A DNA stretch of 64,000 nt from Pseudomonadota bacterium (GCA_021324075.1 JAJPJW010000025.1:43306-107305); one strand, 5' to 3'. Numbered from the stretch's first letter, positions 2,863-34,736 are shown. A program made the numbers and translations. The notes: generated by a model not told the origin, from the sequence alone.

Positions 2863-2872
2863 AACTCCTTTA

Positions 2873-12657: not shown

Positions 12658-12684
12658 ATGTGAACGAAAAAGGGATTTGAATTA

Positions 12685-17620: not shown

Positions 17621-17650
17621 CTTTCGGCGGTCGTTCAATTTGAATCGACG

Positions 17651-17745
17651 CCCCCTTTGAAAAAGGGGGGAGGGGGGTATTAGCCTTTGTCTGGGCGAAA
17701 TGATAAGTCTAACTCCCTCTTAGTCCCCCTCTTTCAGAGGGGGAG
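17651..17745. repeat. Family 1 repeat, solo copy: G-tract hairpin CCCCCTTTGAAAAAGGGGGGAGGGGGGTATTAGC plus second hairpin CCCCCTCTTTCAGAGGGGGAG
   Basis: Near-identical copies at 24126-24212 and 25596-25630; an inverted copy at 25982-26018. Confidence 0.6.
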
Positions 17746-17776
17746 AACAGGGGATATTTCAAATTCACCCACTCTA

Positions 17777-19912
17777 TTAATTATCCAGTCCCCATTGCCC
17801 CATTTCCTTTTGGAGCCAGGCGTTCCCTGGTGAAAGCTTCAGGGCCTTTTGGAAAACGGCCTTGGCCTCCTGCTTTTGCCCCTCGAGCGCCAAGAGCCTC
17901 CCGAACTTCTCGCACAATTCCAGGTCCTGGTAGCTCCGGTCGAAGGAGGCCCGGAAGAGGGGTGAAAACCGGGGCCAATCGGACCCTGCCTCGCCGGGGT
18001 AGAAGGTCGTTTCCCAGGCGTAGTTGTACAAAAGCTTTTCGAAAAAGCACGATTGCAGGAAAGGGTCCGCCGGAACGGAAGGATAGACACGGGCCATGTC
18101 CGCCAAGAGGGGCACCCTTCCTTTGCCGTTCGGGAGGTCCATCGCCTGGAAGTTGAACCTGTGGTAATCCGCGTAAAAAGAATTCCAAGCCAGGAAAAGC
18201 GGGCGGTCCGGGGCGGAAATGGGAAAGACACCCAGGACATAGGGGTTTTGGGCGCCGGATTTGGTCCCCGGAAATTCAATCCAGCGCGCACCGGGGAAAC
18301 GGCTCTTGAGGAAGGGTTCGTAATGGGCCTCGGTAAAAAGGCCGCACCAGGACGCTTTTTCCGGTGAAAGGCCCGGATTCATGGCCGCGTTAAAAGGGAA
18401 GCAATAGAACGAGAGGGAATAATCGTCGACGGCGGGGATCATTTCGGGGAAAACCAATCCGGGCCCGAACCTGGAGGAAAGGGTTTCCAGGACGGCGTAG
18501 CTTTCCTTTTTCTCCCGGACCGTTTCCGTCCCCGGATTTCCGGGAAAGAAAGAACGCCCCAAGTCCAGGCCGCAGGAAATCAGGAGCAGCAGGGCTGCCG
18601 CCCAGGCCCTCCCGCGCGGGGGAAAAACGAAGGCCAGTGCTCGGACCCCCAATGTTGAAACCAGGATGAGCAGGGGCAGGACCAGGAGCACACGGTTGGG
18701 CTCCATGCCGTTGGAAAGGAAGCCCGGCGTCATCAAAATCAACAGGCCCGCCCCCGAAAGAAACAAGGGAAAGCGGTCCCGGGAACGGACCAACTCCATC
18801 ATTCCCAAGAAAAAGAAGGATGCGGAAAAAAGGTTCAGGAACCCGCCGCCATGAAGCGGGCCCTTGGGCCCCAGGTTCCAGAAGAGGGTGTAAAGGTATT
18901 GCAAAATGATCCTGGCCTGGGAGAGGACTGAAAAATTCCTCCAAAACCCGACTTTCATCAAATGGCCCCCATAGCCTTCCTGTCCCGCCGCCACCAGGAA
19001 GGGGACCAGGGCCAAAGCGAAGGAAAGGCCGAACCCGATCCATGGACCCGGGCCCCTCCGGGGCTTGGACCTTAGTTTCCAGGCCGCCAGCCCCAGGACC
19101 ACCGGCACCAGGGCGGGCCAGCAGGGAAAGGTGAAGGGACCCAGTCCCAAGGCAAAACCCAGGAGCCCGCTTTCAACCTGCAGGGAGGAAGAGGGCGGGG
19201 CCTTGAGGAACCACGCCAATAAATAAAGGACCAGGCTTTCCCAAAAAAGCAGGCAGAGGAGGTTCCGGGAGGCCTGTAAGGACCAAAAGTTGAGGGCGAA
19301 CAAGGCCAGGAAAAGCAGGGCGAAGGAGGCGGGAAAGCGCAATCGGACCGCCTGGTAACCCGCCAGCACCGCCCCCAGGGCCAACAAGGTGGCGGGCAAT
19401 TGGTAGGCCCAGAAGGGGGAATGGGTGAGCTTCAGGAAAAACCAGCAAAGGTAACAGCCCGTGCTGGGCGTCTGCCCGAAGGTGACAAACAAGCGCAGGT
19501 TCCAGTGCCGAAGAAGGTCCAGGGCGTATAGACCGGGTTGGATCTCGTCGCCGCCCTGCCACCGGGCGGGGGACCCCAAGCCCCAAAAATAAGCGACGCC
19601 GAGGAGGGGCAGGAAACCCAGCAGGAAAGGGAGCAGGGGCATTTCCACGTCGGTCCCGGCCAGGGGTGACGGCGTTCTTTCGCCGGGCGGCAGGGTTGCG
19701 GCGAAGACGACCAGGGGAAGGGCGAGCCCGAATAAGAGGACGGAAAATTTGGCGGCCAGGGACCAGGAGGTCTCCGCCACAAGGATGTTGGAAAGGGTAA
19801 AAAGAAGGAAATAGGGCCAGGGGTGGTAGGGAAGGTAAAGGTCCGACTGGAAAATTTTTTTCATTTGTTTTCCAACCCCAGGCATTATTGAAAAGAACCG
19901 GGCTTTTTCCAA
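17777..19912 (-). CDS. Polytopic membrane protein with C-terminal TPR-like soluble domain (GT-C-fold glycosyltransferase candidate)
   Basis: More than 10 predicted TM helices, an acidic DE motif in the first loop (GDEIQPGLY), and a C-terminal ~250-aa soluble region ending in TPR-like helices. Confidence 0.4.
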   Translation of the reverse strand: MEKARFFSIMPGVGKQMKKIFQSDLYLPYHPWPYFLLFTLSNILVAETSWSLAAKFSVLLFGLALPLVVFAATLPPGERTPSPLAGTDVEMPLLPFLLGFLPLLGVAYFWGLGSPARWQGGDEIQPGLYALDLLRHWNLRLFVTFGQTPSTGCYLCWFFLKLTHSPFWAYQLPATLLALGAVLAGYQAVRLRFPASFALLFLALFALNFWSLQASRNLLCLLFWESLVLYLLAWFLKAPPSSSLQVESGLLGFALGLGPFTFPCWPALVPVVLGLAAWKLRSKPRRGPGPWIGFGLSFALALVPFLVAAGQEGYGGHLMKVGFWRNFSVLSQARIILQYLYTLFWNLGPKGPLHGGGFLNLFSASFFFLGMMELVRSRDRFPLFLSGAGLLILMTPGFLSNGMEPNRVLLVLPLLILVSTLGVRALAFVFPPRGRAWAAALLLLISCGLDLGRSFFPGNPGTETVREKKESYAVLETLSSRFGPGLVFPEMIPAVDDYSLSFYCFPFNAAMNPGLSPEKASWCGLFTEAHYEPFLKSRFPGARWIEFPGTKSGAQNPYVLGVFPISAPDRPLFLAWNSFYADYHRFNFQAMDLPNGKGRVPLLADMARVYPSVPADPFLQSCFFEKLLYNYAWETTFYPGEAGSDWPRFSPLFRASFDRSYQDLELCEKFGRLLALEGQKQEAKAVFQKALKLSPGNAWLQKEMGQWGLDN

Positions 19913-19945
19913 TTAAATTCCTGCCCGATGGTAATAAAATAGGCC

Positions 19946-20917
19946 ATGCCCCACGACCACAGCCACGAACACGAACATTCCCATAGCCGCGCCGGTTTTC
20001 CCCACGGCCATTCCCACGGCGACGCCGGCCACGACCATTCCCACGGATTCTCCCGCCGCAGCCAGATGCTTTGGGCCATCGGCATCACCGGCTCCATCCT
20101 CGTCCTGGAAGTGATCGGCGGATTCCTTTCCCATTCCCTGGCCCTCTTGTCCGACGCCGGCCACATGCTCACCGACCTGGCGGCGCTCTCGGTTTCACTG
20201 ACCGCCATGATCATGGCTGAAAGGCCCGTCAGCGACCGCCACACCTACGGTTTCGCCCGCCTGGAAGTGCTGGCGGCCTTCGGCAACGCCCTGACCTTCT
20301 TCGTCATGGTGGGGGCGGTGGGATGGGAGGCCTTCCAGCGGCTGGCCACGCCCGCCCTGCCCGACTGGAAGACCATGGGCCTGATCGCGGCCATCGGGCT
20401 TTTGGCCAACGTGCTTTCCGCCTGGTTCCTGCACGGGGCGCATGAGGACGACCTGAACATGAAAAGCGCCTGGGTGCACGTGATGGGCGACCTGGCCTCA
20501 TCGGTGGGGGTCCTGGTGGGAGTGGCGGTCATCGCCAGGACCGGATGGACCTGGGTGGACCCCCTGCTCAGCATTGGCATCGCCGTTTTGATCGCGCTGA
20601 GCGCCTTCAAGCTTTTCTGGAAAGCCCTTCACATCCTGCTGGAGTCGGCCCCCCGGGGGCTGACGCCGGAAAAGATCAGTTCCTGCCTGACCTCCCAACT
20701 GCCCCAGGTCAAGGAAGTGCACCACGTGCACCTTTGGGAAGTGGGCTCGGGGGAGATCCACCTGACGGCCCACGTCGTCGTGGAAGACCAGCCCTTAAGC
20801 CGGGCCCAGGATGTCCTGGAGAAGGCCGTGCAGAACCTGGCCAAGGACTGCGGCATCCACCACGCCACGCTTCAGTTGGAAGTGCCGGGGCAGGAATCCA
20901 AAGAGAAGCCTGAGTGA
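19946..20917 (+). CDS. czcD: Cation diffusion facilitator family divalent-metal exporter (CzcD/ZitB-like) with His-rich N-terminus
   Basis: HSLALLSDAGHMLTD metal-binding-site-A motif, six TM helices, C-terminal cytoplasmic domain, and a His-rich (HxHxH) N-terminal leader. Confidence 0.8.
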   Translation: MPHDHSHEHEHSHSRAGFPHGHSHGDAGHDHSHGFSRRSQMLWAIGITGSILVLEVIGGFLSHSLALLSDAGHMLTDLAALSVSLTAMIMAERPVSDRHTYGFARLEVLAAFGNALTFFVMVGAVGWEAFQRLATPALPDWKTMGLIAAIGLLANVLSAWFLHGAHEDDLNMKSAWVHVMGDLASSVGVLVGVAVIARTGWTWVDPLLSIGIAVLIALSAFKLFWKALHILLESAPRGLTPEKISSCLTSQLPQVKEVHHVHLWEVGSGEIHLTAHVVVEDQPLSRAQDVLEKAVQNLAKDCGIHHATLQLEVPGQESKEKPE

Positions 20918-22491
20918 CCCCAAAAACGGATAAAGGCCGCTGGTGGGCCCTCGCCGTCCTGGCCCTGGCGGGCCTGGCCATCGTCCTGGAGCGTTGCCAC
21001 ACCTACTCCGAGCCCCTGGAAAGGGACATCACCACCTACGCGGTCATCGGGGCGGAGATCCTCAAAGGCCGCTCCCTTTATTCCGACCTTTGGGACCACA
21101 AACCCCCCGCCATCCACGTCACCTTCGCGCTGGCCGAAGCCGCGGCGGGTGAGGGGCCCCTGGCGGTCTTCCTCTTGAATGTCTTCGCGGCCCTGGCGAC
21201 GCTGGCCGGGCTTTACCAGGCGGGAAAAAACCTGGGAGGCCGGGCCGGAGGCCTTTGGGCGGCGGCGATCTGGACCGTCGTTTGCGGCGACCTCTACCTG
21301 CAAGCCAACCAGCCCAACGAGGAAGTCTTCCTGAACGCCCTCCAAACTTCGGTTTTCGCGCTTTGGCTTGGGGCGAAGGCGAAAAAACCCGAACCCCGGC
21401 GGTGGGTGATCATCGGCGTCTTATGCGCCGCCGCCTCCCTTTACAAGCCCTTCGCGGCGCTGGAAGTCCCGGCATTGTCCGCGGCCTTCCTGGCGCTCCA
21501 TTGGAACCCGGAGTCCTTGAGGCAAACCGTCCTTCAAAAAATCTCCACTGTTTTCACTTGTGCCTTCGTCGCCTGGGCAGGTTTCGTCGGCTGGTTCGCC
21601 GTGCAAGGCCATTGGGGCGACTTTTGGGACGCGGTCTTCACCTACAATTTTTATTACAGCGGATACCGCAGCTTTTCCCCGGGAGAATTATTGCGAGCCC
21701 TGGGCGGCCAGGACCCGGGCACCCTTGCCTGGCTTTTTCTTCTCTTGGTTTTGGGATGTTGGGGGGCTTTTACCGGGAAAAAGAAAAAGGAAGAAAGGGG
21801 TCCTTGGTTGTTTTGGGCCGTCTTTCTTGCGGTCGCCTTATTGGAAATCCTGCTTCCCGGGCGGTTCTTCCCCCATTACGACCAGCTCCTGCTGCCGCCG
21901 CTGATCCTTGGCGCGGCCTGGAGCATGAACTTACTGGATCGAGGGGTTGGGAAAGGATGGAAAGGCCTGCCGGGCCTTGTCCTGCTGGTCCTTCTTGTCC
22001 TCCACGAGGCCCCTTTCTACCGGCTCGCGCCCGAACAATGGGCGGAAAAAAAATACGCCGCCGATGGGAAATTGTTCCTCCAGTCCTACCAAGTGGGCAG
22101 GGCATTGAACACATGGTTGTGGCCGGGTGAGACTTTCTACGAGTGGGGAAACGAATCCGAACTTTACTTCGCCTCCCGGCGCTCCCCGCCCAGCGGGGTC
22201 TTCTACGGCTATCCCCTCCTGAACAATCCCTTGGCCGGAGATTTGGCCGCAAGGGTGGTCATGGACCTGGAAATGAAAAAGCCCGAGTTGATCGTGCTCA
22301 ATACGACCTATTACCTGTCGAGCGACCTGTTGGAGCGCCATCCGGTACTCCGGTGGGTGAAGGAAAATTATGATCCTGTTGTTGAGGACCCGCCACGGGA
22401 AGCGTTTCATTTCATGATGCTCAAGGGTGGGAATCTGGAAAAACGGATCGCCGGGACTTCCGTCAATCCTCCTTCGGGGAGCAAGCCTTAA
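20914..22491 (+). CDS. Glycosyltransferase family 39 / ArnT-PMT-like membrane protein
   Basis: Multi-TM protein with the DHKPP motif (YSDLWDHKPPAIHV) in the first periplasmic loop, as in the ArnT/PMT family. Overlaps the czcD stop by 4 nt. Confidence 0.5.
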   Translation: MTPKTDKGRWWALAVLALAGLAIVLERCHTYSEPLERDITTYAVIGAEILKGRSLYSDLWDHKPPAIHVTFALAEAAAGEGPLAVFLLNVFAALATLAGLYQAGKNLGGRAGGLWAAAIWTVVCGDLYLQANQPNEEVFLNALQTSVFALWLGAKAKKPEPRRWVIIGVLCAAASLYKPFAALEVPALSAAFLALHWNPESLRQTVLQKISTVFTCAFVAWAGFVGWFAVQGHWGDFWDAVFTYNFYYSGYRSFSPGELLRALGGQDPGTLAWLFLLLVLGCWGAFTGKKKKEERGPWLFWAVFLAVALLEILLPGRFFPHYDQLLLPPLILGAAWSMNLLDRGVGKGWKGLPGLVLLVLLVLHEAPFYRLAPEQWAEKKYAADGKLFLQSYQVGRALNTWLWPGETFYEWGNESELYFASRRSPPSGVFYGYPLLNNPLAGDLAARVVMDLEMKKPELIVLNTTYYLSSDLLERHPVLRWVKENYDPVVEDPPREAFHFMMLKGGNLEKRIAGTSVNPPSGSKP

Positions 22492-22831
22492 GCCACTGGG
22501 ACAGGTGCTGGTCGACGTTGTTCAGGCGCTTGGCCCAGCGCTCCTGAAGCTCGGCCGAGAGCAGGTTCTTGCGGACGCAAAGGCTCATCAGGGGCACGCA
22601 TTCGTTCGTGAGGGCGACGGCCTGCTCCAGGAAGCGGGCGGTGCGGGCGGCGTTGGTGGAATCCTTGGCCTTGTGCACGGCCTGGGAAAGCTCGTGCACC
22701 TGGCGTTTCAGGCGCGAGACGGCCTCGTGCTTCAAGGCCCAGGGCAGGTTCTGGTAGGTCTTGTTGATCTCCCCCGCCAGGTCGTCGCAAACGGCGGTGA
22801 GATCGACGTTCAGGAAGTCCGAAGACGCCAA
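22463..22831 (-). CDS. Hypothetical protein (~122 aa); probable TTG start with GGAGGA RBS
   Basis: Coding-like composition on the minus strand. The upstream part of the longer track ORF (to 23164) overlaps the acyltransferase gene and is rejected. The plus-strand ORF 22427..22936 looks like a GC shadow ORF. Confidence 0.3.
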   Translation of the reverse strand: MASSDFLNVDLTAVCDDLAGEINKTYQNLPWALKHEAVSRLKRQVHELSQAVHKAKDSTNAARTARFLEQAVALTNECVPLMSLCVRKNLLSAELQERWAKRLNNVDQHLSQWLKACSPKED

Positions 22832-22869
22832 GGTATTTTCCTCCGTTCCCCGCCGGGCCCTTTTTCCAA

Positions 22870-24054
22870 TCAAGCCGCCTTTAAGCCGAAAGCCCTTCGA
22901 ACAGCCAGGTTGGCCGGCGCCTCGAAAAAATGGTAGCAAAGGGCGGCAACCCCCGTCGAGATCAATACGAAGAGGACATAGGCGGTCAAAAGGTCCCCAT
23001 GGGCGATCAAGAGGGGGTAGGAAAAATAAAAAACGAAGATGTGTAGGAGGTAGATTCCGTAACTGTATTTTCCCGGCCAGGCCAGGGGGGCCCAAAAGGC
23101 GGATTGGAAAAAGCGCAAGTGCAGCCCACCCAGCAGCAGTAAAAAGGAGCCCAAAGCCACGCAACTGGCCCCGACAACGTCCTCGGACCGGTGGTCATAG
23201 GTGTCGGTCCCCAGGTAGGCCAAGGCCAGCAAGGCCACCCCCGAAAGGCAGGCCAGCGCGCAGAGGCGGGGGCGGAGGCCCAGGAAGGGCCCGTATTTTT
23301 TGGCCACGAAGTAAAGCAGGGCCCCGAAAGCGATCTGGTCGAAGGACCCGAAAGAACCGAACTTCCCCCATTCGGAATAAGAGGGCGAAAGCCGGCCCAT
23401 GGCGAAGCGCCACAAGGGACCCAGGACCACCATGGCCGATAGGAAGGCCAGGTAGGGCCCCGCCCGGCCCAGGCGTTTCAGGAGTAGGGGATAGAAAATA
23501 TAAAACTGCTCCTCCACCGAAAGGGACCACATCACTCCCCAAGCGACGGCGATGAGCTTGCCGGCGCTCAAGGCGCAGTACCAATTGAAGGAAAAGGTGA
23601 AAAGGGAGGACCAAAAGAGGAAATTAAACTGGCCGGGGTCGGCCAGGAAGCAGTAATTGAACCGCGGCATGGCCCGCGGCAAAAGGTAGGCCGCCGCCAG
23701 GCCCAGGAGGATGGTCAGGAAGAACAGGGGGAAAATACGGGCGACGCGCCGCGCGTAAAAGGTTTTGAACGAGGGCGAAAAAAGCCCCTTCCCCTGGCCG
23801 TCGATCAAACGGGTGATGAGAAAACCCGAGACCACGAAAAAAACCCCGACCCCATAGGCACCGTTTTTTTGGAAGTGGTACCACCACCAACCGTAGGCGG
23901 GATCGGGAGGGGGCACGTAGACAAAATGCGCCGCCATCACCGACAAAATGGAAAAGCTGCGCAACAAATCGACGATCTGCAGCTTAACGGGCGCGGCAGG
24001 TTTGGTTTTTGGCCTTGCTTTGATGGACAGCCTCCCGGAAACACCTGTCATCAT
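22870..24054 (-). CDS. Acyltransferase family 3 (OafA/OpgC-like) membrane protein
   Basis: N-terminal VDLLRSFSILSVMAAHF and FFVVSGFLIT motifs; ~10 TM helices. Paralog of 26998..28173. Confidence 0.7.
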   Translation of the reverse strand: MMTGVSGRLSIKARPKTKPAAPVKLQIVDLLRSFSILSVMAAHFVYVPPPDPAYGWWWYHFQKNGAYGVGVFFVVSGFLITRLIDGQGKGLFSPSFKTFYARRVARIFPLFFLTILLGLAAAYLLPRAMPRFNYCFLADPGQFNFLFWSSLFTFSFNWYCALSAGKLIAVAWGVMWSLSVEEQFYIFYPLLLKRLGRAGPYLAFLSAMVVLGPLWRFAMGRLSPSYSEWGKFGSFGSFDQIAFGALLYFVAKKYGPFLGLRPRLCALACLSGVALLALAYLGTDTYDHRSEDVVGASCVALGSFLLLLGGLHLRFFQSAFWAPLAWPGKYSYGIYLLHIFVFYFSYPLLIAHGDLLTAYVLFVLISTGVAALCYHFFEAPANLAVRRAFGLKAA

Positions 24055-24125
24055 AACAAAACAACCGCATAGGACGGACGGCGGGAAACCTTACGGGGTC
24101 TGGGTAATGATTCAGTTTGAACATT

Positions 24126-24212
24126 CCCCACTTTGAAAAAGGGGGGACAGGGGGGTATTAGCTTTTGCGGTGAGGCTAACTCCCCCCCAATCCCCCTCTT
24201 TCAGAGGGGGAG
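24126..24212. repeat. Family 1 repeat, solo copy
   Basis: CTTTGAAAAAGGGGGGACAGGGGGGTATTAGC ... CTAACTCCCCCCCAATCCCCCTCTTTCAGAGGGGGAGG. Lies between acyltransferase-1 and hpnE. Confidence 0.6.
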
Positions 24213-24217
24213 GAAAA

Positions 24218-25570
24218 TCATCCACCAGATGGAGACACTGCCGGGGTCTGGGGTCCCAGGATTTTTCCGGCGGCCCGGTGGCCCGAGAGGCAGGCGCCTT
24301 CCAGGGTGGCCGGCAGGCCCGTGTCGGTCCAATCCCCGGCCAGGAAGACGTTGGGACAGGGTGTCTCGCAGGGCGGGCGCAGCTTGTCCGTTTCACGGCT
24401 CCAAACGAAGGTGGCGGCCATTTCCCGCGTGGCCTTGGAATGGAGGACCCGGACCCCCCGGGCAGTGGGGCAACGGTCGGACAGTTCCTTCAAGGCCATC
24501 TCCACCAGTTCGGGGTCCTTCAGGCGGGCCAAATCGTCGGCCGCGCTGGCGGTGAAAGAAAGGTACTGGCCGTCCATTTTCAAACCCCAATTGGCGTTGC
24601 GGTTGAAGACCCACTCAAACTTTGCGCCGGAGAGGCCCACCAAGTGCCCCTCGAGGACGGGCTTGGCGAGGATCAGGTGCACGGAAACGATGGAGGACTT
24701 GCCCATTTGGGGGAAATGGGCCGCAGCGTCCCAAGTTCCCACGGGCCACAGGGCCGAAAGGGAGGAGGGCGGCACGGCGAGGACGAGGGCGTCCGCCGAA
24801 TAAAAGGCGCCGGAACGGGCTTTTACCCCCACCGTTTTTCCCTCCACAACGAAGGATTGGACTCCTTCGTGAAAAAGAACCCGGGCCCCTTTTCCTTCCA
24901 TGAATTTTTTCGCCTGGGTGGAAACCACTTCGCTCAAGGGAAGGCGGGCCACCCCCAGGGCGCTGTCCCGGCGGCTGCCGAAGAAAACCCGGCGCAGGAC
25001 CTCGCCCAAGCCTTCGATGGGAGCGACCGGGGGCGGCACATTCATGACGGCGTTGCAAAGCGGGCCCCAGAACCTCTCGCGGACCTTCGGGCCCTGGGCC
25101 GTGGCCTCCAGGTATTGGGCGACCGTTTCAACACCTGGCGGGATCTTGAAGGGTTTGCGGGAAAAAGCCGAGAGGGCGCGGGCCAGGGAGATTTTTTCCC
25201 CCCAAGGAAAGGCGTTGGAAAAGAGCAAGCCCCAGGCCAGGTGCAAGGGCGCGGGCCAGGGGGTGCATTTCAGGGAAACCTCCCTGCCGCCGGGGGTGAG
25301 CCAGGCCAGGGCCAGGGGATCGATCCATTGGAGGTTTTTTTCCACGCCGATGCGGCGGAACAGCCGGAGGGTTTCGGCATAACAGCCCATGAAAAGATGG
25401 GGCCCGTTGTCCATGGGCGCGGGAAAGGTTTCCGAAGGGGCGATGGAATAGGCCCGGCCGCCCAGGAAGCCGCGGGATTCCAACAGGTCCACTGAATGGC
25501 CCGCTTCGGCCAGGGCCGTGGCCGCCGCCAGGCCCGCGTAACCGCCGCCGACCACGATGACTTTGGGCAT
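24218..25570 (-). CDS. hpnE: Hydroxysqualene dehydroxylase (squalene-associated FAD-dependent desaturase)
   Basis: FAD-binding N-terminus VIVVGGGYAGLAAA. Amine-oxidase/desaturase fold. Gene order places it after hpnC and hpnD. Confidence 0.7.
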   Translation of the reverse strand: MPKVIVVGGGYAGLAAATALAEAGHSVDLLESRGFLGGRAYSIAPSETFPAPMDNGPHLFMGCYAETLRLFRRIGVEKNLQWIDPLALAWLTPGGREVSLKCTPWPAPLHLAWGLLFSNAFPWGEKISLARALSAFSRKPFKIPPGVETVAQYLEATAQGPKVRERFWGPLCNAVMNVPPPVAPIEGLGEVLRRVFFGSRRDSALGVARLPLSEVVSTQAKKFMEGKGARVLFHEGVQSFVVEGKTVGVKARSGAFYSADALVLAVPPSSLSALWPVGTWDAAAHFPQMGKSSIVSVHLILAKPVLEGHLVGLSGAKFEWVFNRNANWGLKMDGQYLSFTASAADDLARLKDPELVEMALKELSDRCPTARGVRVLHSKATREMAATFVWSRETDKLRPPCETPCPNVFLAGDWTDTGLPATLEGACLSGHRAAGKILGPQTPAVSPSGG

Positions 25571-25595
25571 TTCAAAATCCTTAAGGAGAAAAAAT

Positions 25596-26018
25596 CCCCC
25601 TTTGAAAAAGGGGGGTAGGGGGGTATTAGCTTTTCACAACCGCCCTTAGTATTTCCTCTAGAACCGCCTCTTTATTTTTCAAAACTTGGTGGTTATCCAA
25701 TCGAAGTACCCTTAAACCCTGGTTCTTGAAAAACGAATCCCGAAGAACATCTTTTTCTTTTACTTCGCCATGAAAATGTTGTCCGCCATCTATTTCAATG
25801 ACCAGAGCGGCCTCACGGCAATAGAAATCCACAATGTAGTTGCCGATGATCCGCTGACGATAAAAACAAGCTCCAGCAATTTGTTTGCGGCGAAGATGGG
25901 ACCAGAGAAGACGTTCGGCATCCGTCATCCCGCGACGGAGTTTTCGGGCAGTTTGTGTTTGATTCCTACGATAAGGCAACAACTAATACCCCCCTTCCCC
26001 CCTTTTTCAAAGGGGGGA
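25596..26018. mobile_element. Small element bounded by ~35-bp inverted copies of the family 1 G-tract repeat and carrying a single DUF559 endonuclease-like gene
   Basis: Left end TCCCCCTTTGAAAAAGGGGGGTAGGGGGGTATTAGC (25596-25630). The right end reverse-complements to CTCCCCCCTTTGAAAAAGGGGGGAAGGGGGTATTAGTTGT (25982-26018). Inserted between hpnD and hpnE. Confidence 0.55.
25626..25982 (-). CDS. DUF559 domain protein (Vsr/restriction-endonuclease-like fold)
   Basis: 118 aa. Conserved DUF559 core RKLRRGMTDAERLLWSHLR...IVDFYC...LVIEIDGGQH. The ORF runs exactly from one terminal repeat to the other. Confidence 0.7.
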   Translation of the reverse strand: MLPYRRNQTQTARKLRRGMTDAERLLWSHLRRKQIAGACFYRQRIIGNYIVDFYCREAALVIEIDGGQHFHGEVKEKDVLRDSFFKNQGLRVLRLDNHQVLKNKEAVLEEILRAVVKS

Positions 26019-26074
26019 GCGGCGTTTTACTGCATCGCTGGTTGTGGAAACACTCCTCGCAATGACATAAAAAA

Positions 26075-26914
26075 CTAATTTGAGGACCATTTCCACAACC
26101 AGCACCTTCCCACCGCGCCCAAGACCGACAAGAGCTTGTCCGCCTTCGAGAGGGTGGTGCGCCCCTTGAGGATGCGGTAGGGGTTCGCCCTCAGCTTCTG
26201 GTAAAGCTTCACGTAAACCGCCGCGATGGCCTCGGCGGTGGCCAGTTGGGCGCGCTGGCGGCGGCTCAAGGCCGTCCTCGCCTTTTCCAGGAAGGACCAG
26301 GCACGGTCCAACTGGAACTCCACGAATTTTTTCCAGTGTGAGTTGTCCTCGTCCAAGTGGGAGGGGTTCAGGTGGAAGCGGTTGAAATCCTCCTCCGGCA
26401 GATACCGGCGGCCCAAGGCGCCGTCCTCCCGGTAGTCGCGGGTGATATTGACCAGTTGGAGGAAGACCCCCAGGTTCTCCGCGTAATCCCGGTGGGCTTG
26501 GTCCTTGAAGCCGAAGATCTCCATGCTGGACAGGCCGGGGCCCCCCGCCACCCGCAGGGCGTATTGGTGGAGCTCGGCGAACTTCTTGAAACGGATGGGC
26601 CTTAGGTCCTGCTCCACGCCCCGGAGGATGCGGTTCAGGGGTTCGCGGGTAAGCCCGAAGGCGGGAATCAGGGCCTGGAGTTTCTGGAAGAGGCCATCCT
26701 TCGCCCGGCCCTGGAAGGCGGCGTCCAGCCCCTGCTTGAACCGGGAAAGCCCCCGGCGCTTGGCAACAGGGGAACCGGGGCTGTCGGCGATCTCATCAGC
26801 CACCCAGCAAAACCGGTAAAGCACTTCCATGGCCCGGCGCTGGCCGCGGGGCAAAAGAAGGAGCGGGTAGTAAAAGCTGGTCTTGTTCTCGAGCGATTGT
26901 TTCGGGGGAGCCAT
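26075..26914 (-). CDS. hpnD: Presqualene diphosphate synthase (squalene/phytoene synthase family)
   Basis: SFYYPLLLLP...AMEVLYRFCWVADEIAD matches the HpnD/CrtB N-terminal signature. Start chosen at the Met 12 aa before SFYY; the track ORF extends to 26959. Confidence 0.7.
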   Translation of the reverse strand: MAPPKQSLENKTSFYYPLLLLPRGQRRAMEVLYRFCWVADEIADSPGSPVAKRRGLSRFKQGLDAAFQGRAKDGLFQKLQALIPAFGLTREPLNRILRGVEQDLRPIRFKKFAELHQYALRVAGGPGLSSMEIFGFKDQAHRDYAENLGVFLQLVNITRDYREDGALGRRYLPEEDFNRFHLNPSHLDEDNSHWKKFVEFQLDRAWSFLEKARTALSRRQRAQLATAEAIAAVYVKLYQKLRANPYRILKGRTTLSKADKLLSVLGAVGRCWLWKWSSN

Positions 26915-26997
26915 CCATTCCGTCCCTTTAGGATGGCTGGATTTTAACAGTCCGCCCATTCCGGAAGGGATAAAAGTCCCGCCGGATCAAGGAAAAG

Positions 26998-28173
26998 TCA
27001 CGCCCGGGCCGCGCCCCGGGACCGCCACCGATCCCAGGCCCCGCGGATCAGTCGGTTGGCGGGCCATTCGAAGAAACGGTAGGAAAGGGAAGCCACCAGG
27101 GTGGTGAGAAGGACCAAGAGGGCGAAGCCGCCGAGGAGGCCCAGGCTTCCTAAAAGGGGCCGGCTGATGAAAAGCACAAGGGGGTGGAGCAGGTAACAGC
27201 CGTAGCAGTACCTGCCGGGGTAAGCCAGGGCCTTCAGCCAGGGTGATTCCCAGAAGGAAAGGGAGAGGCCGCCCATCAGGAAAAGGAAGAGCCCCCCGGC
27301 CAGGACTTCGGGGACGAAAATTTCCTGCAGGGGGTCGTTCTCGCGGGTCCCGAAATAGGCCGACAGGAGGACCAGGGCCCCCGCAAGACAAAGGAGAACG
27401 GCGGTTTTTTTCTTCCGCAAAAGAGAGGGGCCGTAGCGCCGGAAAGCCAGATAAAGCGCGATACCGCAGGCGATCAAGTCGAATTTGGCTGGGGAAGCGT
27501 AGGATTCCACGAAGTCGTTGGAGCCCCTGTGGAAATAAAAATAAGACCTCCAGGCCAATCCGGCCAAAACGACCAGGGCCAAAACCACCCGGAAATTCCG
27601 GGTGTTCCGGATCTTTCCCAGGGCCCAGGGATAAAGCAGGTAAAACTGTTCCTCGATAGCCAGGCTCCAGAGGATCATCCAAGGGACCGAATAGTTCCAA
27701 TCAGGCCGGAAGACCAGAAGCCAGTTGAAGAGGAAGGTGGATGCGCAAAACCAGAACCAGCCATCGTGGTTGCCGCCGGGGGTGAAGAATTGCCGGTAGA
27801 GCGCCGAGGCGGGCGGGGCGAGGAAAAAAACGGCGATTCCCCAGGCGAGGCAAAGCAGGAAAAGGGGCCAGATACGGCCGATGCGGCGCAGGTAAAAGCG
27901 GGGAAGGTCGGGCTTGAAAAGGCCGCCCGCGTCGCGCGCAAGGACGTGGGTGATGAGGAAGCCCGAGACCATGAAAAAAAGGAAGACCCCGTAGAAGCCG
28001 TTGACGCAAAACCGGCCCCAGAGCCAGGCTTTCCAGGGGCTGTCGAAGGGGACGTTGGAGTAATAATGGACGCCCATGACGGCGATCACGCAGGCGCCGC
28101 GCACCAGGTCGATGACCTGCCAAGTGGGGGGAGCAGCCGAATTTTTGCGGGTACTGGAAGGACGGGTGGTCAA
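26998..28173 (-). CDS. Acyltransferase family 3 membrane protein embedded in the hpn operon
   Basis: VIDLVRGACVIAVMGVHYY and FFMVSGFLITH motifs. Probable TTG start at 28173 overlapping the hpnC stop (TTGA). The track ORF extends to 28227. Confidence 0.6.
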   Translation of the reverse strand: MTTRPSSTRKNSAAPPTWQVIDLVRGACVIAVMGVHYYSNVPFDSPWKAWLWGRFCVNGFYGVFLFFMVSGFLITHVLARDAGGLFKPDLPRFYLRRIGRIWPLFLLCLAWGIAVFFLAPPASALYRQFFTPGGNHDGWFWFCASTFLFNWLLVFRPDWNYSVPWMILWSLAIEEQFYLLYPWALGKIRNTRNFRVVLALVVLAGLAWRSYFYFHRGSNDFVESYASPAKFDLIACGIALYLAFRRYGPSLLRKKKTAVLLCLAGALVLLSAYFGTRENDPLQEIFVPEVLAGGLFLFLMGGLSLSFWESPWLKALAYPGRYCYGCYLLHPLVLFISRPLLGSLGLLGGFALLVLLTTLVASLSYRFFEWPANRLIRGAWDRWRSRGAARA

Positions 28174-29042
28174 GAGCCCTTCCCCGGGGGCAGCAAGGCG
28201 GCCAAGAAGACCTGGAACTTGTCCCAAACCCCCAAATGGGGGCGTTGCTCCAGGACCTGGTAGTCCATCCCGCGGATTTTCCCCAGGATCCGGGAACCTC
28301 CCCGGCAGGTGGCTTTCAGCTCCAACTTGAGGCGCCCGGTCACCGCGTCCAAAAGGGGCAGGCCTTTCCGAAAGTAACCTTCGGTGAAATCCACCGCGCT
28401 CCGAACCATCCGGCGCACCGGGGGGGAATCCTGCAAGGCCAACAGGCCTTTCGCCCCCACCCCCGCTTTTTTCAATTCGGCCAGGGGGTAGTAAATCCGG
28501 CCGCGTTTCAAATCGATGGAACTGTCCTGCCAGAAGTTGATGAGCTGCAGGCCGCTGCAGATGAAATCCGAATACCGGTGGAGCTTTTCGTCCCGGATGC
28601 CCGAGATGAGCAGGACCATCCGGCCCACGGGGTTGGCGCTATGGCGGCAATAGTAAAGAAGGGCGTTCCAGGTGGAATAGCGGTGGTTCACCACATCCAT
28701 ACGGTAGGCGCGCAGGAGGTCCAGCGGGAGGGAAAGGGGGATTTGGAAGGTCCGGACCGTATGGGCGAAGGCCATGAGGGCCGCGGGGGCTTTTTTGCCT
28801 TTGAGGGCGTCTTTCAGGCCCCTTTCCCATCGGGCGATCTCCTTAAGCCGCCGGCCCTCATATTTTTCCTCGTCGGCGAAGTCGTCGGCGGTGCGGGCAT
28901 AGGCATAGAGGGCCGCCACATGGGGGCGGGAGACCTTGGGCAGGAGCAGGGAGGCCACCGGAAAATTCTCGTAGTGGCCGAAGGCCTGCCTTTGGCAGTC
29001 CTCATAGGCTTTTTCCAGGTGGGACGGGATGGAGACATCCAT
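28170..29042 (-). CDS. hpnC: Hydroxysqualene synthase (squalene synthase HpnC)
   Basis: HYENFPVASLLLP...ALYAYARTADDFADE is the N-terminal trans-isoprenyl diphosphate synthase head-to-head motif. First gene of the hpnC-D-E set. Confidence 0.7.
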   Translation of the reverse strand: MDVSIPSHLEKAYEDCQRQAFGHYENFPVASLLLPKVSRPHVAALYAYARTADDFADEEKYEGRRLKEIARWERGLKDALKGKKAPAALMAFAHTVRTFQIPLSLPLDLLRAYRMDVVNHRYSTWNALLYYCRHSANPVGRMVLLISGIRDEKLHRYSDFICSGLQLINFWQDSSIDLKRGRIYYPLAELKKAGVGAKGLLALQDSPPVRRMVRSAVDFTEGYFRKGLPLLDAVTGRLKLELKATCRGGSRILGKIRGMDYQVLEQRPHLGVWDKFQVFLAALLPPGKGS

Positions 29043-29174
29043 GGTCCCAAGGATAAAGGGGAAAGGTAGGGAGAGAAACGCTTATTTGCCCTTGGAATTA
29101 GGCCAATCGCCTTGCGATTGGCACTACCCAAGCTTAGCCCTTCGCCTCGTGGACCCAGGGCTGGGACGGCCTTT

Positions 29175-29861
29175 TTAGCGACCGCTGCCCAGCACTTCAC
29201 TAGCGGTCTGTGGGCCTTGCCTTAGGAAATTGTAAAGGAGCGCCGCGGCCACGGCGCCCAAGACCGGGCCCAGGGTGTAAATCCACATTTCCCCCAATTG
29301 TCCCTGGAACAGGGCGGGGGCCAGGGACCGGGCGGGGTTCATGGAGGCCCCGGTGACGGGCCCGCCCACGAAGGCCGCCAGCATGACCGTGCCGCCGATG
29401 GCGGCCCCCGCCATGGTGCCCTCGGCCCGGGTGTCGGTGGCCACCGCCATGATGACGAACATGAGGAAGAAGGTCAGGACCCCTTCCCAGGCCAGGGCCT
29501 GCGGGGGATGCACCGAGGAGAAGGTGGTCCCGTAGGCCCGGCCGGAGGGAAGGAGTAGAACCAAAAGCCCGCTGGCCGCGACGGCGCCGGAGAATTGGGC
29601 CAACCAATAAAAGGGGATCTGCCGCAGGGGGAAATGCCTTCCCACCGCGAAGGCCAGGGTGACGGCGGGGTTGAAATGGGCGCCGGAAATATGGCCCACC
29701 GCGTAAATCATGACGGCCACCGCCAGCCCGAAAACCACCGGGACGGCCGCAGGGGGGACGGAACCGGGGAACCGGTCCGCCACCATGACGGCCCCGCAGC
29801 CCGCGAAGACCAGGGTGAAGGTGCCCACCGCCTCGGCGATGGATTTTTTCAGGAGGGTCAC
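29175..29861 (-). CDS. MIP-family aquaglyceroporin (probable arsenite channel, AqpS-like)
   Basis: Two NPA boxes (HFNPAVT and SMNPARS). Six TM helices. Immediately downstream of arsC. Confidence 0.8.
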   Translation of the reverse strand: MTLLKKSIAEAVGTFTLVFAGCGAVMVADRFPGSVPPAAVPVVFGLAVAVMIYAVGHISGAHFNPAVTLAFAVGRHFPLRQIPFYWLAQFSGAVAASGLLVLLLPSGRAYGTTFSSVHPPQALAWEGVLTFFLMFVIMAVATDTRAEGTMAGAAIGGTVMLAAFVGGPVTGASMNPARSLAPALFQGQLGEMWIYTLGPVLGAVAAALLYNFLRQGPQTASEVLGSGR

Positions 29862-30280
29862 GGTTGGATTCCCTCCAGCGCGGCCCTCTTGAATTTCTCC
29901 TGGATCATGTCCCGGACCCTGCGGAACTCCTTCAGGAATTCCTCATTGGGTTCCTCGGTCTGGGGCGGGTCGGGGAAGGACCAGTGCAGGCGGTGCTTGG
30001 CGCCGGGGAAGACCGGGCAGGTTTCGTTGGCGTTGTCGCAAACCGTGATGACGTAGTCGAAAGGCTGGCCCAGGAACAGGTCCAGGCCCTTGGAAGCCTG
30101 GCCGGAAATGTCGATGCCGACCTCCTCCATGACCCGCACGGCGTTGGCATTGACGTGGGAAGCCACGGTGCCGGCGCTGAAAACCTCGAACTTGCCGGAA
30201 CCGTAGTGACGGAGGAAGCCTTCGGCCATTTGGGACCGGCAGGAGTTCTTGGTGCAGAGGATGAGGACGCGTTGTTTCAT
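29858..30280 (-). CDS. arsC: Arsenate reductase, LMW-PTP / thioredoxin-coupled type
   Basis: ILCTKNSCRSQMAEG P-loop. 141 aa from the internal Met. ATGA start-stop overlap with the upstream regulator and a 4-nt overlap with the aquaporin gene. Confidence 0.8.
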   Translation of the reverse strand: MKQRVLILCTKNSCRSQMAEGFLRHYGSGKFEVFSAGTVASHVNANAVRVMEEVGIDISGQASKGLDLFLGQPFDYVITVCDNANETCPVFPGAKHRLHWSFPDPPQTEEPNEEFLKEFRRVRDMIQEKFKRAALEGIQP

Positions 30281-30663
30281 TTTTTCCTTCCGGGCTTTTT
30301 CACCCAGCCGCCCAGGGTTTCCTTCAAACGGCTTTTCATGCCTTCCAATTCCCCGATTTTGGACTCCAATTCCCTGACCTTCCGGCTGAAGAGGTCCTTG
30401 GTCAGGTCGCAGCAGGGCCCCAGGCCTTTTTCCCCGCAAAAGGTGATCGTGTGGATCTCCTTGAGGGTCAATCCCATGGCCTGGGCCTTTTGGATGAACC
30501 GGAGCCGTTCCACCGTTTCGGCGGGGTAGAGCCGGAACCCCCCGGCCGTCCGAGCCGGCTTTTTCAACAGGCCTATTTGTTCGTAATAGCGGATGGTATG
30601 GATGGAGGCCCCGCTTTTTTTTGAAACCTGGCCTATTTGAAGTGCCTGACCCTTGGGCTCCAT
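30277..30663 (-). CDS. MerR-family metal-responsive transcriptional regulator with C-terminal Cys motif
   Basis: HTH IGQVSKKSGASIHTIRYYEQIGLL. Cys residues CGEKGLGPCC in the effector region. GGGAGG RBS. Confidence 0.7.
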   Translation of the reverse strand: MEPKGQALQIGQVSKKSGASIHTIRYYEQIGLLKKPARTAGGFRLYPAETVERLRFIQKAQAMGLTLKEIHTITFCGEKGLGPCCDLTKDLFSRKVRELESKIGELEGMKSRLKETLGGWVKKPGRKK

Positions 30664-30988: not shown

Positions 30989-32038
30989 TCAGGGCGCGGC
31001 CAAGTCGAATTTTTGGACGCGGTGGTTTTCAGCGTCCACCACGAAGACGGAGCCGCCGGGGCCGAAGGCCAAGGCGGTGGGCCGGTTGAACTGCCCCTTT
31101 TGGTTTCCCGAATCGCCCCACTGCCCCTCGAACCCCAGGTCCGGCCCGAAAACCTGGATGCGGTTGTTGCCGTCGTCGGCCACGAAGAGGTTGTCCTGGG
31201 CATCGAACTTCAAGCCCTGGGGATGTTCGAACTGCCCGGGCGAGGAGCCCCTTTCCCCGAGCACCGAGAGGAACTGGCCGGCCCCATCGAACCGTTCGAT
31301 CCGGTTGTTGTTGAAGTCGGAGACGAAGACCTCGCCGGCCTTGTTGACGTCGATGCCCACCGGCCAATTGAACTGCCCGTCGCGCCCGCCCAGGCTTCCC
31401 CATTGAAGGAGATAATTCCCGCCCGTGTCGAACTTCTCAATCCGGTGGTTCCACTGGTCCGTCACGTAGACCCCGTCCCCGTGGATGGCGATGTCGTGGG
31501 GCTTGTTAAACTGGCCGTCGCCCTGGCCCGGAGTGCCCCATTGCGAAAGGAAAGCCCCAGAGGGATCGAACTTCTGGACCCTGGAATTGCCCGAATCCAC
31601 CACGTAAATGGCGCCGTCCCCGCCCACGGCAATGCCCAGGGGGGTGTTGAACTGGCCGCTTTGGTCGCCACAGGTCCCGAAGGAAAACTGGAATGATCCC
31701 CAGGAATCGAATTTTTGGACCCGGCAATTATGCCAGTCGGTGACCAGGGGAAATCCCTTGGCGTCCACGGCGACACCGATGGGCTCGCGGAACTGGCCAT
31801 TGTCCCCGCCCTCGCCGCCCCAGGAACTTTCAAACCGGCAGCTGACGGAAGCCGGCTTGGAGGAAGGCCTGGAACCTGAGAAACGGCCGGCCTTCGCGAA
31901 GAAAAAATAATAGGCGCCAAAGCCCAGGAGAAAAACGGCCAGGAAGAGGATGAGGACATTCATGAAGGTGAGGTCGATTTTGGGGGGGGAAGGGGGTTGG
32001 GGATCTAATTCCGGCATAGGGGTCCTCCTTATATACAT
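30989..32038 (-). CDS. NHL-repeat (6-bladed beta-propeller) protein with N-terminal membrane anchor
   Basis: Repeated xYVxDxxNxRIxKF units (VYVTDQWNHRIEKFD, VFVSDFNNNRIERFD, LFVADDGNNRIQVFG, VFVVDAENHRVQKFD). Confidence 0.75.
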   Translation of the reverse strand: MYIRRTPMPELDPQPPSPPKIDLTFMNVLILFLAVFLLGFGAYYFFFAKAGRFSGSRPSSKPASVSCRFESSWGGEGGDNGQFREPIGVAVDAKGFPLVTDWHNCRVQKFDSWGSFQFSFGTCGDQSGQFNTPLGIAVGGDGAIYVVDSGNSRVQKFDPSGAFLSQWGTPGQGDGQFNKPHDIAIHGDGVYVTDQWNHRIEKFDTGGNYLLQWGSLGGRDGQFNWPVGIDVNKAGEVFVSDFNNNRIERFDGAGQFLSVLGERGSSPGQFEHPQGLKFDAQDNLFVADDGNNRIQVFGPDLGFEGQWGDSGNQKGQFNRPTALAFGPGGSVFVVDAENHRVQKFDLAAP

Positions 32039-33518: not shown

Positions 33519-34736
33519 TTGATTTTTAATACAAGTTGGTTCCTCCTCTTTTTTCTCCTCTTTTACTTCTTCCTCTGGCTCATGCCCAACGCCAAGGTCC
33601 GCTTTTTCTACACGCTCATTTGCAGCGCCATCTTCCATTACCACTTCGCCGGGCCCGCGGGGGTGATGCCGATCATCCTGATGGCCATCCTCACTTTTTT
33701 CATGGCCCTTTGGGTGGCCCGCTGCCCGCAGGGGAGCCCCCGGAAAAAATGGGTCTACGGCGTTTCCCTGTTAGTGCCCGTCTTCGGGCTGGTGTTCTAC
33801 AAATACCGCGCCCTTTTGCTGGGGTCCCTGGGGCCCTTCCTGGGCGGGGCGGCGGGCGGGTGGATGACCGCCAATGCGGTCCAACCCGCCATGCCGCTGG
33901 CCATTTCCTTTTTCACCTTCGAGTTCGTGCATTACCTGACCGACGTCTACCACGGCCACGGACAGCCGGTGAAGAACCCCTTCAAGTTCGCCTTGTTCTG
34001 CATTTTTTTCCCCTCCATCGTGTCCGGGCCCATCAAGCGGTTCCAGCCCTTCCTGGCCCAGTTGGAGCAGGGGTTGGAAAGGCCGGCGGCCTCCCAAGCC
34101 CTCTTGGGGCTCGCCCAAGTCTTGCTGGGGTTCTTCAAGAAGCTGGTCATCGCCGACAACGCCACCCTGGCCATCCACCTGCTGGAAAAGCGCAATGACC
34201 TGACCTCCGGGCCGGTCTGCCTCCTGTTGGCGCTGCTTTCCATCCGCATCCTCTTCGATTTCAGCGGCTATTCGGACATCGCCATCGGCCTGGGCAAGAT
34301 GATCGGCCTGGACCTTCCCGTGAACTTCAACTTCCCCTATGTCGCCCGCAACATCACCGATTTCTGGCGCCGGTGGCACATGTCCCTGAGCAGCTGGATC
34401 CGGGACTACATCTATATCCCCCTCGGGGGAAACCGGCACGGCCCCTTGCGGAAGTTCCTCAACCTCATGGTGACCATGTTCGTCTGCGGGCTTTGGCACG
34501 GGGCCAGCTGGCACTTCGGCCTTTGGGGCATGTACCATGGGGCGGCCCTGGCGGCGCACAACGCCTGGGGAAAATCCCGGGTGGGCCAAAGATGGGCTTC
34601 CTGGCCTTTCAGCCGCTGGGTCGACATCGGGGTGACCAATGTTTTCGTGGCCTATGGCTGGCTTTTGTTCTTTTACCCGGTGGACCAAGTGGTGAAATTC
34701 ACGAAATTCCTTTTTTCGATCCGAGGTGGAATGTGA
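33519..34736 (+). CDS. MBOAT-family membrane-bound O-acyltransferase (AlgI/DltB/PatA-like)
   Basis: Signature WRRWHMSLSSWIRDYIYIPLGGNRHG with the conserved His; ~10 TM helices. Confidence 0.85.
   Translation: MIFNTSWFLLFFLLFYFFLWLMPNAKVRFFYTLICSAIFHYHFAGPAGVMPIILMAILTFFMALWVARCPQGSPRKKWVYGVSLLVPVFGLVFYKYRALLLGSLGPFLGGAAGGWMTANAVQPAMPLAISFFTFEFVHYLTDVYHGHGQPVKNPFKFALFCIFFPSIVSGPIKRFQPFLAQLEQGLERPAASQALLGLAQVLLGFFKKLVIADNATLAIHLLEKRNDLTSGPVCLLLALLSIRILFDFSGYSDIAIGLGKMIGLDLPVNFNFPYVARNITDFWRRWHMSLSSWIRDYIYIPLGGNRHGPLRKFLNLMVTMFVCGLWHGASWHFGLWGMYHGAALAAHNAWGKSRVGQRWASWPFSRWVDIGVTNVFVAYGWLLFFYPVDQVVKFTKFLFSIRGGM

Follow-up and report, generated by a model that had tools for sequence, protein, structure and literature searches.

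In a 64-kb stretch of DNA from a Pseudomonadota bacterium (GCA_021324075.1 JAJPJW010000025.1:43306-107305), the squalene-synthesis genes hpnC, hpnD and hpnE are interleaved with two paralogous genes, AT3a and AT3b, which encode transmembrane acyltransferases of the acyltransferase-3 (AT3) family. This full stretch is called the window, and coordinates are counted within it unless a related locus is named. The hpnCDE genes normally constitute a compact three-gene unit that feeds the synthesis of hopanoids or, in some bacteria, of C30 carotenoids; in this uncultured soil/peat lineage they are physically fused to AT3 genes and to genes for ArnT-like membrane glycosyltransferases of the GT-C fold. 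Taken singly, the proteins are unremarkable representatives of known families, and what is new is the lineage-specific operon architecture of hpnCDE with GT-C and AT3 genes, of which a literature search found no description. We suggest, with a confidence that is about evenly balanced, that the AT3 enzymes acylate a sugar on the glycoconjugate of the linked GT-C enzymes and that they are co-expressed with squalene synthesis. Were the linkage functional, squalene-type lipids might be regulated jointly with the modification of surface glycans, as one envelope-remodeling program, or, less likely, the locus might make an undescribed glycosylated and acylated triterpenoid product. If it is merely historical, it is a caution that start/stop overlaps and conserved neighborhoods among close relatives are weak functional evidence in lineages with compact genomes.

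The genes were identified from a listing of the open reading frames (ORFs) and from profile searches with Pfam and the NCBIfam/TIGR models (Table 1). The minus strand carries, in succession, hpnC, AT3a, an hpnD-like gene, a DUF559 ORF with its inverted repeats, hpnE, a degenerate copy of the repeat and AT3b; a preliminary description of the DNA had named this order, and each of its gene calls stands. The Asp-rich motifs DDFAD and DSSID of HpnC are readable in the sequence. The hpnD-like product scores 199.2 bits against TIGR03465 (HpnD), under the 278.6 cut-off though this is its best NCBIfam match; the HpnD orthologues of two related loci score similarly low (204 bits in L172 and 178.6 bits in L175), and the position of the gene, its SQS_PSY domain and its Asp-rich motifs all fit HpnD. 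The later of its two candidate starts, 26914, is the placement by an independent gene caller. The locus resembles the canonical hpnC-hpnD-hpnE operon (pathway of Pan et al. 2015, summarized in PMC7306690) in its C-D-E order, its Asp-rich motifs and the passing of the equivalog cut-offs by HpnC and HpnE, but it is interrupted by a 1.2-kb AT3 gene and by the DUF559 element, and its HpnD falls under the equivalog cut-off. Since the proteins of the locus recur, identical and in the same arrangement, on contigs of three independent assemblies (ENA, Logan and JGI), this arrangement did not arise by chimeric assembly. In GC content (0.58-0.61), the two AT3 genes are native.

Gene context was obtained for 12 distinct loci that carry this AT3 subfamily, six of which (the window included) have it within an hpnCDE string and six away from one. 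The two closest relatives, L172 and L174 (HpnC/D/E 72-88% identical), have no AT3 gene between hpnC and hpnD, and in both of them two GT-C genes separate hpnE from an AT3b orthologue (62-68% identity). The insertion of an AT3 gene between hpnC and hpnD is common to three more distant relatives. The AT3 gene of L175 follows a GT-C pair and belongs to the AT3a branch (51% identical), so both AT3 branches use that slot. When these loci are compared, a recurring string emerges: hpnC-hpnD-hpnE, at least one ArnT-like GT-C gene, an AT3 gene, a small ORF with weak four-helix-bundle similarity and a PMT_2 gene. hpnE is most regularly partnered by a GT-C gene, with AT3 often present as a third member. 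Paralogues of the GT-C genes also stand directly after hpnE in L084 and L089; the hpnE-GT-C junction is a 4-nucleotide (nt) overlap in L175 and a 1-nt overlap in L084, and the gaps are about 10 nt in L172 and L174. In L175, 4-nt overlaps run through hpnD/hpnE/GTC/GTC and join orf120 to PMT_2, and the hpn genes of this locus come after genes for a Gmd-like sugar dehydratase, a methyltransferase of the sugar type and a GT2. The GT-C, AT3 and Gmd-like/GT2 neighbors together indicate that hpnCDE are embedded in glycan-type genes in this lineage. Unlike the many hopanoid producers in which shc comes after hpnCDE, it is ArnT-like GT-C genes that follow them here.

A search based on hpnC yielded three further close relatives without an AT3 gene between hpnC and hpnD: L089, which has three GT-C genes after hpnE, L094 and L095. 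The last of these carries a 720-residue GT-C gene (1911-4073 of that locus, minus strand) between hpnD and hpnE and in the opposite orientation to them, which is a second and independent kind of interruption of an hpn operon by an envelope-glycosylation gene. Elsewhere, the unit is compact. In 57 more distant metagenomic loci with hpnC and hpnD, the extrapolated gap between these two genes is at most 464 nt (median about -27), and the hpnD-hpnE gap does not exceed 213 nt in the 41 that include hpnE; no match resembling AT3a/b or GTC711, the window's member of the GT-C family, was found in these 57 loci, 31 of which extend at least 1.5 kb past hpnE. The interleaving in the window is therefore unusual. 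The preliminary description had set its proposal against the possibility that the acyltransferases were absent from the hpn loci of all relatives and co-varied instead with an unrelated neighboring glycan locus, and the synteny supports the proposal in part. Absence is contradicted by the six distinct hpn loci, window included, that carry a member of the AT3 subfamily within the string; yet the AT3 genes do track the GT-C array.

At the junction of hpnC with AT3a, the TGA stop codon of the former (28172-28170) overlaps a TTG codon (28173-28171) in the frame of the latter (...GGC TCT TGA / cTTGa). The preliminary description had read this TTGA as translational coupling, and the overlap is indeed present and is reproduced by independent gene calls, the same 391-residue AT3a product with its 4-nt overlap having been called on two other assemblies of the same DNA. 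The feature is not conserved, however: gaps of about 105 nt separate the two genes in L083 and L084, none of the three relatives with this insertion has a start/stop overlap, and the TTGA is confined to the window. A scan of positions 22000-30600 for sigma-70 promoters gave zero sites. As hydroxysqualene is the product of HpnC (PMC7306690), AT3a might be imagined to esterify its hydroxyl directly and so divert the pathway before HpnE. The sole argument for such a reaction is the location of AT3a right after hpnC with the overlapping start and stop, and this overlap is the very feature that varies; the closest relatives lack AT3a, members of the AT3a branch follow the two GT-C genes of L175 and have no hpn neighbors in L086 and L088, and the characterized AT3 acceptors noted from PMC9558356 and PMC7448272 are all carbohydrates. 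We regard this direct esterification as highly improbable.

AT3a and AT3b are intact, canonical AT3-only acyltransferases from two old branches of a single large environmental AT3 subfamily. They are 39% identical over about 400 amino acids (aa; E = 2e-68), match positions 4-325 of the 326 in the PF01757 profile and have 9-10 hydrophobic segments in a crude scan. The motifs R/K-X10-H, FFxxSG and RXXR are directly readable in both; in AT3a they are R25-X10-H36, FFxxSG at 66-71 (F66, F67, S70, G71) and R97xxR100, and each of these residues is invariant or at least 90% conserved in a 37-sequence family alignment. According to the mutagenesis of OafA and Oac described in PMC7448272, R/K-X10-H in transmembrane helix 1, FFxISG in helix 2 and RXXR in the loop between helices 2 and 3 are essential. 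The Pfam profile search found no SGNH domain (PF19040) in either AT3a or AT3b, which are hence AT3-only, Oac-type enzymes and not fusions of the OafA type; no NCBIfam equivalog or subfamily model matches them. The AlphaFold model of AT3a (pLDDT 93.4, pTM 0.91) has only two high-probability matches in the PDB, 8jl4_A (probability 1.00, TM 0.50), listed merely under "membrane proteins", and 8vli_A (probability 0.99, TM 0.47), which is human HGSNAT with CoA. Structures of the HGSNAT type have recently been unified with AT3 as the TmAT superfamily (PMC12423673), and the model predicts this multi-helix transmembrane acyltransferase fold for AT3a. No solved AT3 structure came up when the PDB was searched by sequence with this family's profile.

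The subfamily is set apart by score in a word-indexed search (at least 159 bits, versus at most 114 bits for generic AT3 proteins), and in a neighbor-joining tree AT3a and AT3b fall on separate branches, two in all, of this subfamily. It is also large: an exhaustive search gave at least 150 clusters at 50% identity with at least 248 bits, and 4144 with E <= 1e-30. The 80 loci listed in a scan of genome contigs for the AT3 family included a single true member, L003 from a metagenome-assembled genome of candidate division FCPU426 (38% AT3 identity), and none of the 80 has hpn genes beside AT3, which says little, as most are generic AT3 genes. The literature on FCPU426 yielded nothing on squalene or hopanoids. 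AT3a and AT3b share with the AT3-only enzymes that O-acylate surface glycans (Oac of Shigella phage Sf6, WecH, ExoZ, NodX and the OpgC type) a length of about 390 aa, the lack of a fused SGNH domain, multiple predicted transmembrane helices, the R/K-X10-H, FFxxSG and RXXR motifs and the HGSNAT-like fold; they differ from them in lying in or beside hpnCDE, and not in an O-antigen, exopolysaccharide (EPS) or Nod locus.

The membrane glycosyltransferases of the string are represented in the window by GTC711. In L084, the product of the gene overlapping the stop of hpnE shares 28% identity with it across 629 aa (E = 7e-52). Nine of 11 GTC711 paralogues have PMT_2 matches, albeit weak ones (best E = 5.3e-07), and most have a C-terminal TPR; GTC711 itself scores 21.1 bits against PMT_2, under the 26.1 threshold. 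In a structural model built from database homologues as input (pLDDT 76.6), its best PDB matches are ArnT (5f15, E = 8.6e-06; 5ezm, E = 2.2e-05; TM up to 0.52), followed by AglB, AftB, ALG12, PglB and Pmt4, with a probability of 1.00 from ArnT to PglB. All of these are GT-C enzymes that use polyprenyl-phosphate-linked sugars, and a GT-C fold is accordingly predicted for GTC711 and its paralogues. Residue D122 is invariant in the paralogue alignment and is located in a predicted N-terminal loop, closely behind a W-P pair that is itself nearly invariant; database names for the homologues include "Ara4N transferase-like" and "GT39". A sequence search of the PDB with GTC711 matched the C-terminal TPR alone. 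Comparison of the GT-C paralogue profile with the 525-aa PMT_2 neighbor by hhalign was not significant (probability 0.4), so these are different GT-C subfamilies and not recent duplicates. The PMT_2 gene, convergent with the hpn string, has a 64% identical orthologue in L172/L173. The GTC711 family resembles ArnT/PMT_2 enzymes (GT39, GT83) in its predicted fold and invariant Asp, and the 525-aa neighbor passes the PMT_2 cut-off; the GTC711 family departs from them in its length of about 700 aa, in an extra C-terminal alpha/beta domain with TPR, in its arrayed genes and in its sub-threshold similarity to PMT_2. These arrays (at least five paralogues of about 700 aa within 15 kb in L172, at 5436-20000, and three in a row in L089, at 9153-14303), whose members are 25-31% identical to one another, are an unusual expansion of ArnT-like enzymes.

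From these elements we envisage that hpnCDE have been joined to an envelope-glycosylation module that would comprise one or more ArnT/PMT-like GT-C enzymes with C-terminal TPR, the AT3 enzymes, the four-helix-bundle ORF and PMT_2. Each AT3 would take an acyl-CoA, most likely acetyl-CoA, from the cytoplasm into its transmembrane pore by means of the R-X10-H and RXXR residues and would then esterify a hydroxyl group of a sugar on the outer side of the inner membrane. As acceptor, a glycoconjugate assembled by the linked GT-C enzymes out of polyprenyl-phosphate sugars would be the most probable; family precedent and the neighboring GT-C genes both point to a carbohydrate acylated on the extracytoplasmic side. 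Squalene synthesis and glycan modification would be co-expressed as one envelope-remodeling unit, in which the AT3 enzymes would not be steps of squalene synthesis. The analysis shows which genes are present, that their motifs are conserved, the folds of the models and the gene orders of relatives; we infer the co-transcription, the acyl donor, the acceptor and any physiological link to squalene. Given the carbohydrate-only precedents for AT3 and the tendency of AT3 to travel with GT-C genes, acylation of a sugar is the most economical mechanism. The preliminary description had proposed an acyl modification linked to the squalene pathway and had left the choice between squalene- or hopanoid-derived lipids and an associated envelope polymer. 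The polymer is now favored, because no AT3 gene separates hpnC from hpnD in the closest relatives, only the window has the overlap and AT3 co-varies with the GT-C array; nothing directly supports the lipids.

Several observations weigh against acylation of a glycan made by the linked GT-C enzymes. Half of the 12 AT3 loci (L086, L088, L003, L176, L177 and L178) have neither hpn neighbors nor an adjacent TPR-bearing GT-C gene, so the pairing of AT3 with GT-C is not universal; the more distant members of the AT3 family sit away from hpn genes altogether. In L003, for instance, a gene of the beta-lactamase family precedes AT3. L178 has two AT3 genes in tandem (8764-11143, about 40% identical), two GT-C genes of the YfhO type some 5 kb from them (16160-20390) and no hpn genes, and this AT3a-like/AT3b-like pair suggests that such a pair may predate the association with hpn. 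All the hpn-linked loci are of one lineage and share their flanks (arsC-aquaporin upstream, addAB downstream), so that part of the synteny may be simple inheritance. Moreover, across 26-44% protein divergence AT3a has stayed at precisely the same place, between hpnC and hpnD, for which there is no obvious reason if the enzyme is purely glycan-directed. In L086 (7207-9149), an AT3 gene 55% identical to AT3a is preceded, at 26 nt, by the gene for a secreted START-domain protein (31.9 bits versus a cut-off of 22) whose N-terminus resembles a signal peptide, and this lipid-binding partner hints at a lipid acceptor. Finally, neither acceptor nor donor is readable from the sequence.

The START protein is among the facts that would be accommodated if the string tailored a triterpenoid: GT-C would attach a sugar to a lipid derived from squalene (hydroxysqualene, a hopanoid or another cyclized product) and the AT3 enzymes would acylate that sugar, to give an acylated glycosyl-triterpenoid of the envelope that parallels the C30 carotenoids but is made by other enzyme families. 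The tight coupling of hpnE to GT-C, which persists where the upstream genes differ, the retention of AT3a at its hpnC-hpnD site by three diverged loci and the GT-C gene inside hpnD-hpnE of L095 all agree with this scheme. It is nonetheless unlikely in our judgment, and it ranks below the historical explanation considered further on. The closest relatives have no AT3a, L083 has neither an adjacent GT-C gene nor AT3b, and remoter members of the AT3 family show no linkage to hpn. No squalene-hopene cyclase (shc/hpnF) was detected among the 30 window ORFs scanned, which include every ORF of at least 500 aa, nor was a cyclase found in the gene tables of the related loci, a result that applies to these stretches and not to the rest of the genome; CrtN/CrtP or another squalene-consuming enzyme was likewise absent from the 64-kb window and from the fetched flanks of the relatives. 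We know of no GT-C enzyme with a triterpenoid acceptor, and among GT-C enzymes a TPR at the C-terminus is more typical of those that act on proteins. The terms hopanoid, squalene and carotenoid gave no hits in a term search of an AT3 review (PMC9558356).

There is a precedent of a conceptual kind for such tailoring, since squalene derived from HpnCDE feeds glycosylated and acylated C30 carotenoids in the systems described in PMC9907078 and PMC10448405, where a squalene-derived lipid is first glycosylated and then acylated. Those clusters employ CrtN/CrtP, a GT2 (CrtQ) and, as the acyltransferases described there with hpnC/D/E, enzymes of the CrtO or lysophospholipid-acyltransferase (LPLAT) type and not AT3, whereas the window has GT-C and AT3. 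The possibility that the window string is itself a carotenoid cluster was rejected; its sole amine oxidase is the HpnE equivalog, and it has no CrtN/CrtP, GT2 or CrtO/LPLAT. The strictest form of triterpenoid tailoring, in which hpnCDE, GT-C and AT3 are a single pathway, with periplasmic glycosylation of a squalene-derived triterpenoid from polyprenyl-phosphate sugars and its O-acylation by AT3 yielding a new class of envelope lipid, seems to us more doubtful still. If true, it would provide the first triterpenoid acceptor for a GT-C enzyme and the first role for AT3 linked to an isoprenoid lipid.

The window is closest to L172/L174 in every quarter of HpnC, HpnD and HpnE. The identity of AT3a to its counterpart in L083 (74%) equals that of HpnD (74%) and is near that of HpnC (68%), which fits an old, vertically inherited hpnC-AT3-hpnD state with later losses; ancestral presence with losses would fit the history of AT3a, gain being the alternative. 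No recombination signature was found for an import of AT3a together with flanking hpnC/hpnD sequence from an L083-like donor, every quarter of HpnC/D/E being closest to L172/L174. The degenerate solo repeat in the hpnE-AT3b spacer stands where L172 and L174 carry their two GT-C genes; by eye, this spacer, compared in search of a deletion scar, has no resemblance to the GT-C junctions of these relatives, so the loss of a GT-C pair is deduced from gene order alone. The window would then be a rearranged version of the string, with AT3a inside it, the GT-C pair lost, a repeat remnant in its place and DUF559 between hpnD and hpnE.

Two 39-nt inverted repeats enclose the DUF559 ORF, at 25596-25634 and at 25978-26016; they are 92% complementary, and each contains the hairpin CCCCCCTTTTTCAAAGGGGG. 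The GC content of the ORF is 44.8% versus 58% for the window. Apart from the solo repeat, no further copy of the element or its repeat was found in the 64-kb window, and shuffled sequence gave zero matches to the repeat. ORF and repeats behave as a small mobile element. Its presence at the identical hpnD-hpnE site in L172 (3648-4062 of that locus; 81% protein identity) argues for an old insertion; it is absent in L174. On the distal side of the element, just before hpnE, a hairpin at 25614-25596 followed by a T-run has a terminator-like score, so that hpnE may need its own promoter.

Upstream of the hpn string are genes for a MerR regulator, an LMWPc (ArsC-type) phosphatase and a MIP channel (29175-30663, minus strand). 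LMWPc and MIP are kept directly upstream of hpnC in L089, L172 and L174, at 39-58 nt from it, and MerR recurs solely in L174. Since these unrelated genes lie so close to hpnC, tight spacing is normal in this lineage and is weak evidence of function. The two AT3 enzymes could accordingly be generic O-acetylases of surface polysaccharide or peptidoglycan that local rearrangement has placed here, with no tie to squalene or to GT-C. The region is in flux, as witnessed by the DUF559 element, the solo repeat, the variable number of GT-C genes and an IS21 in L175; AT3a and AT3b are each present or absent among close relatives, and the large AT3 subfamily is found mostly elsewhere. The shared unrelated flanks and the tight spacing lead us to keep this historical explanation as the foremost of the alternatives, even if an unlikely one. 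It is opposed by the persistence of the hpnCDE-GTC-AT3 linkage under differing upstream neighbors (L083, L084 and L175 versus L172 and L174), by the 4-nt overlaps that join several L175 genes and by the independent occupation of slots in the same string by both AT3 branches.

Table 1. Positions of the features in the window, with the gene orders of related hpn-linked AT3 loci in the last five lines
Feature or locus	Position	Strand	Basis or gene order
hpnC (hydroxysqualene synthase), 290 aa	28170-29042	-	TIGR03464 289.8 bits (cut-off 250.45); PF00494 202 bits
AT3a, AT3-only transmembrane acyltransferase, 391 aa, TTG start	26998-28173	-	PF01757 96.0 bits (cut-off 31)
hpnD-like presqualene diphosphate synthase	26075-26959 (start 26959 or 26914)	-	PF00494 189 bits; best NCBIfam match TIGR03465
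DUF559 inserted selfish element, ORF + inverted repeats	25596-26016	-	PF04480, repeats, GC
DUF559 ORF (Vsr-like endonuclease fold)	25626-25982	-	PF04480 124 bits
hpnE (hydroxysqualene dehydroxylase), 450 aa	24218-25570	-	TIGR03467 385.2 bits (cut-off 283.05)
Degenerate solo copy of DUF559-element repeat, hpnE-AT3b spacer	24127-24168		D3 82% identity, I2 79% complementary
AT3b, AT3-only transmembrane acyltransferase, 394 aa, paralogue of AT3a	22870-24054	-	PF01757 94.4 bits (cut-off 31)
orf122, small ORF, 122 aa	22463-22831	-	PF05635 21.7 bits, under cut-off
PMT_2 (GT39/ArnT-type GT-C) glycosyltransferase, 525 aa	20914-22491	+	PF13231 37.9 bits (cut-off 26.1)
GTC711, 711-aa GT-C-fold (predicted) membrane protein + C-terminal TPR	17777-19912	-	Paralogues directly after hpnE in relatives
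L083 (HpnC/D/E 68/74/62% identical to window)			hpnC-AT3a(74%)-hpnD-hpnE-orf122
L084, same AT3 protein on L085 (66/64/65%)			hpnC-AT3a(56%)-hpnD-hpnE-GTC
L172, same AT3 protein on L173 (72/88/84%)			hpnC-hpnD-DUF559-hpnE-GTC-GTC-AT3b orthologue (68%)-orf122
L174 (80/84/82%)			hpnC-hpnD-hpnE-GTC-GTC-AT3b orthologue (62%)-orf122
L175 (68/61/51%)			hpnC-hpnD-hpnE-GTC-GTC-AT3-orf120-PMT_2

Downstream of AT3b the window continues with the 122-aa ORF, the convergent PMT_2 gene, a CDF transporter, GTC711 and addA/addB-like genes. The small ORF, orf122, has sub-threshold similarity to four-helix-bundle, 23S_rRNA_IVP and Avd-like proteins; it is kept after AT3 in four relatives, L172, L174 and L175 among them, and stands directly after hpnE in L083 (55-88% identity). 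Between the addB-like (9397-12657) and addA-like (14285-17620) genes is wedged an ORF for a 541-aa Ser/Thr protein kinase (12685-14310, plus strand) of 32% GC versus 58% for the window, which looks like a foreign insertion. On the other side of the hpn string, NHL-repeat proteins are encoded at 30989-32038, 34373-36778 and 37173-39272; the first of these resembles the PEP-CTERM protein ScyF (198 bits, under cut-off), and an NHL protein is also a neighbor of AT3 in L088. A tRNA with undetermined anticodon that ARAGORN calls within the first NHL-repeat ORF (31549-31637, minus strand) is not supported by Rfam and is therefore probably a false positive.

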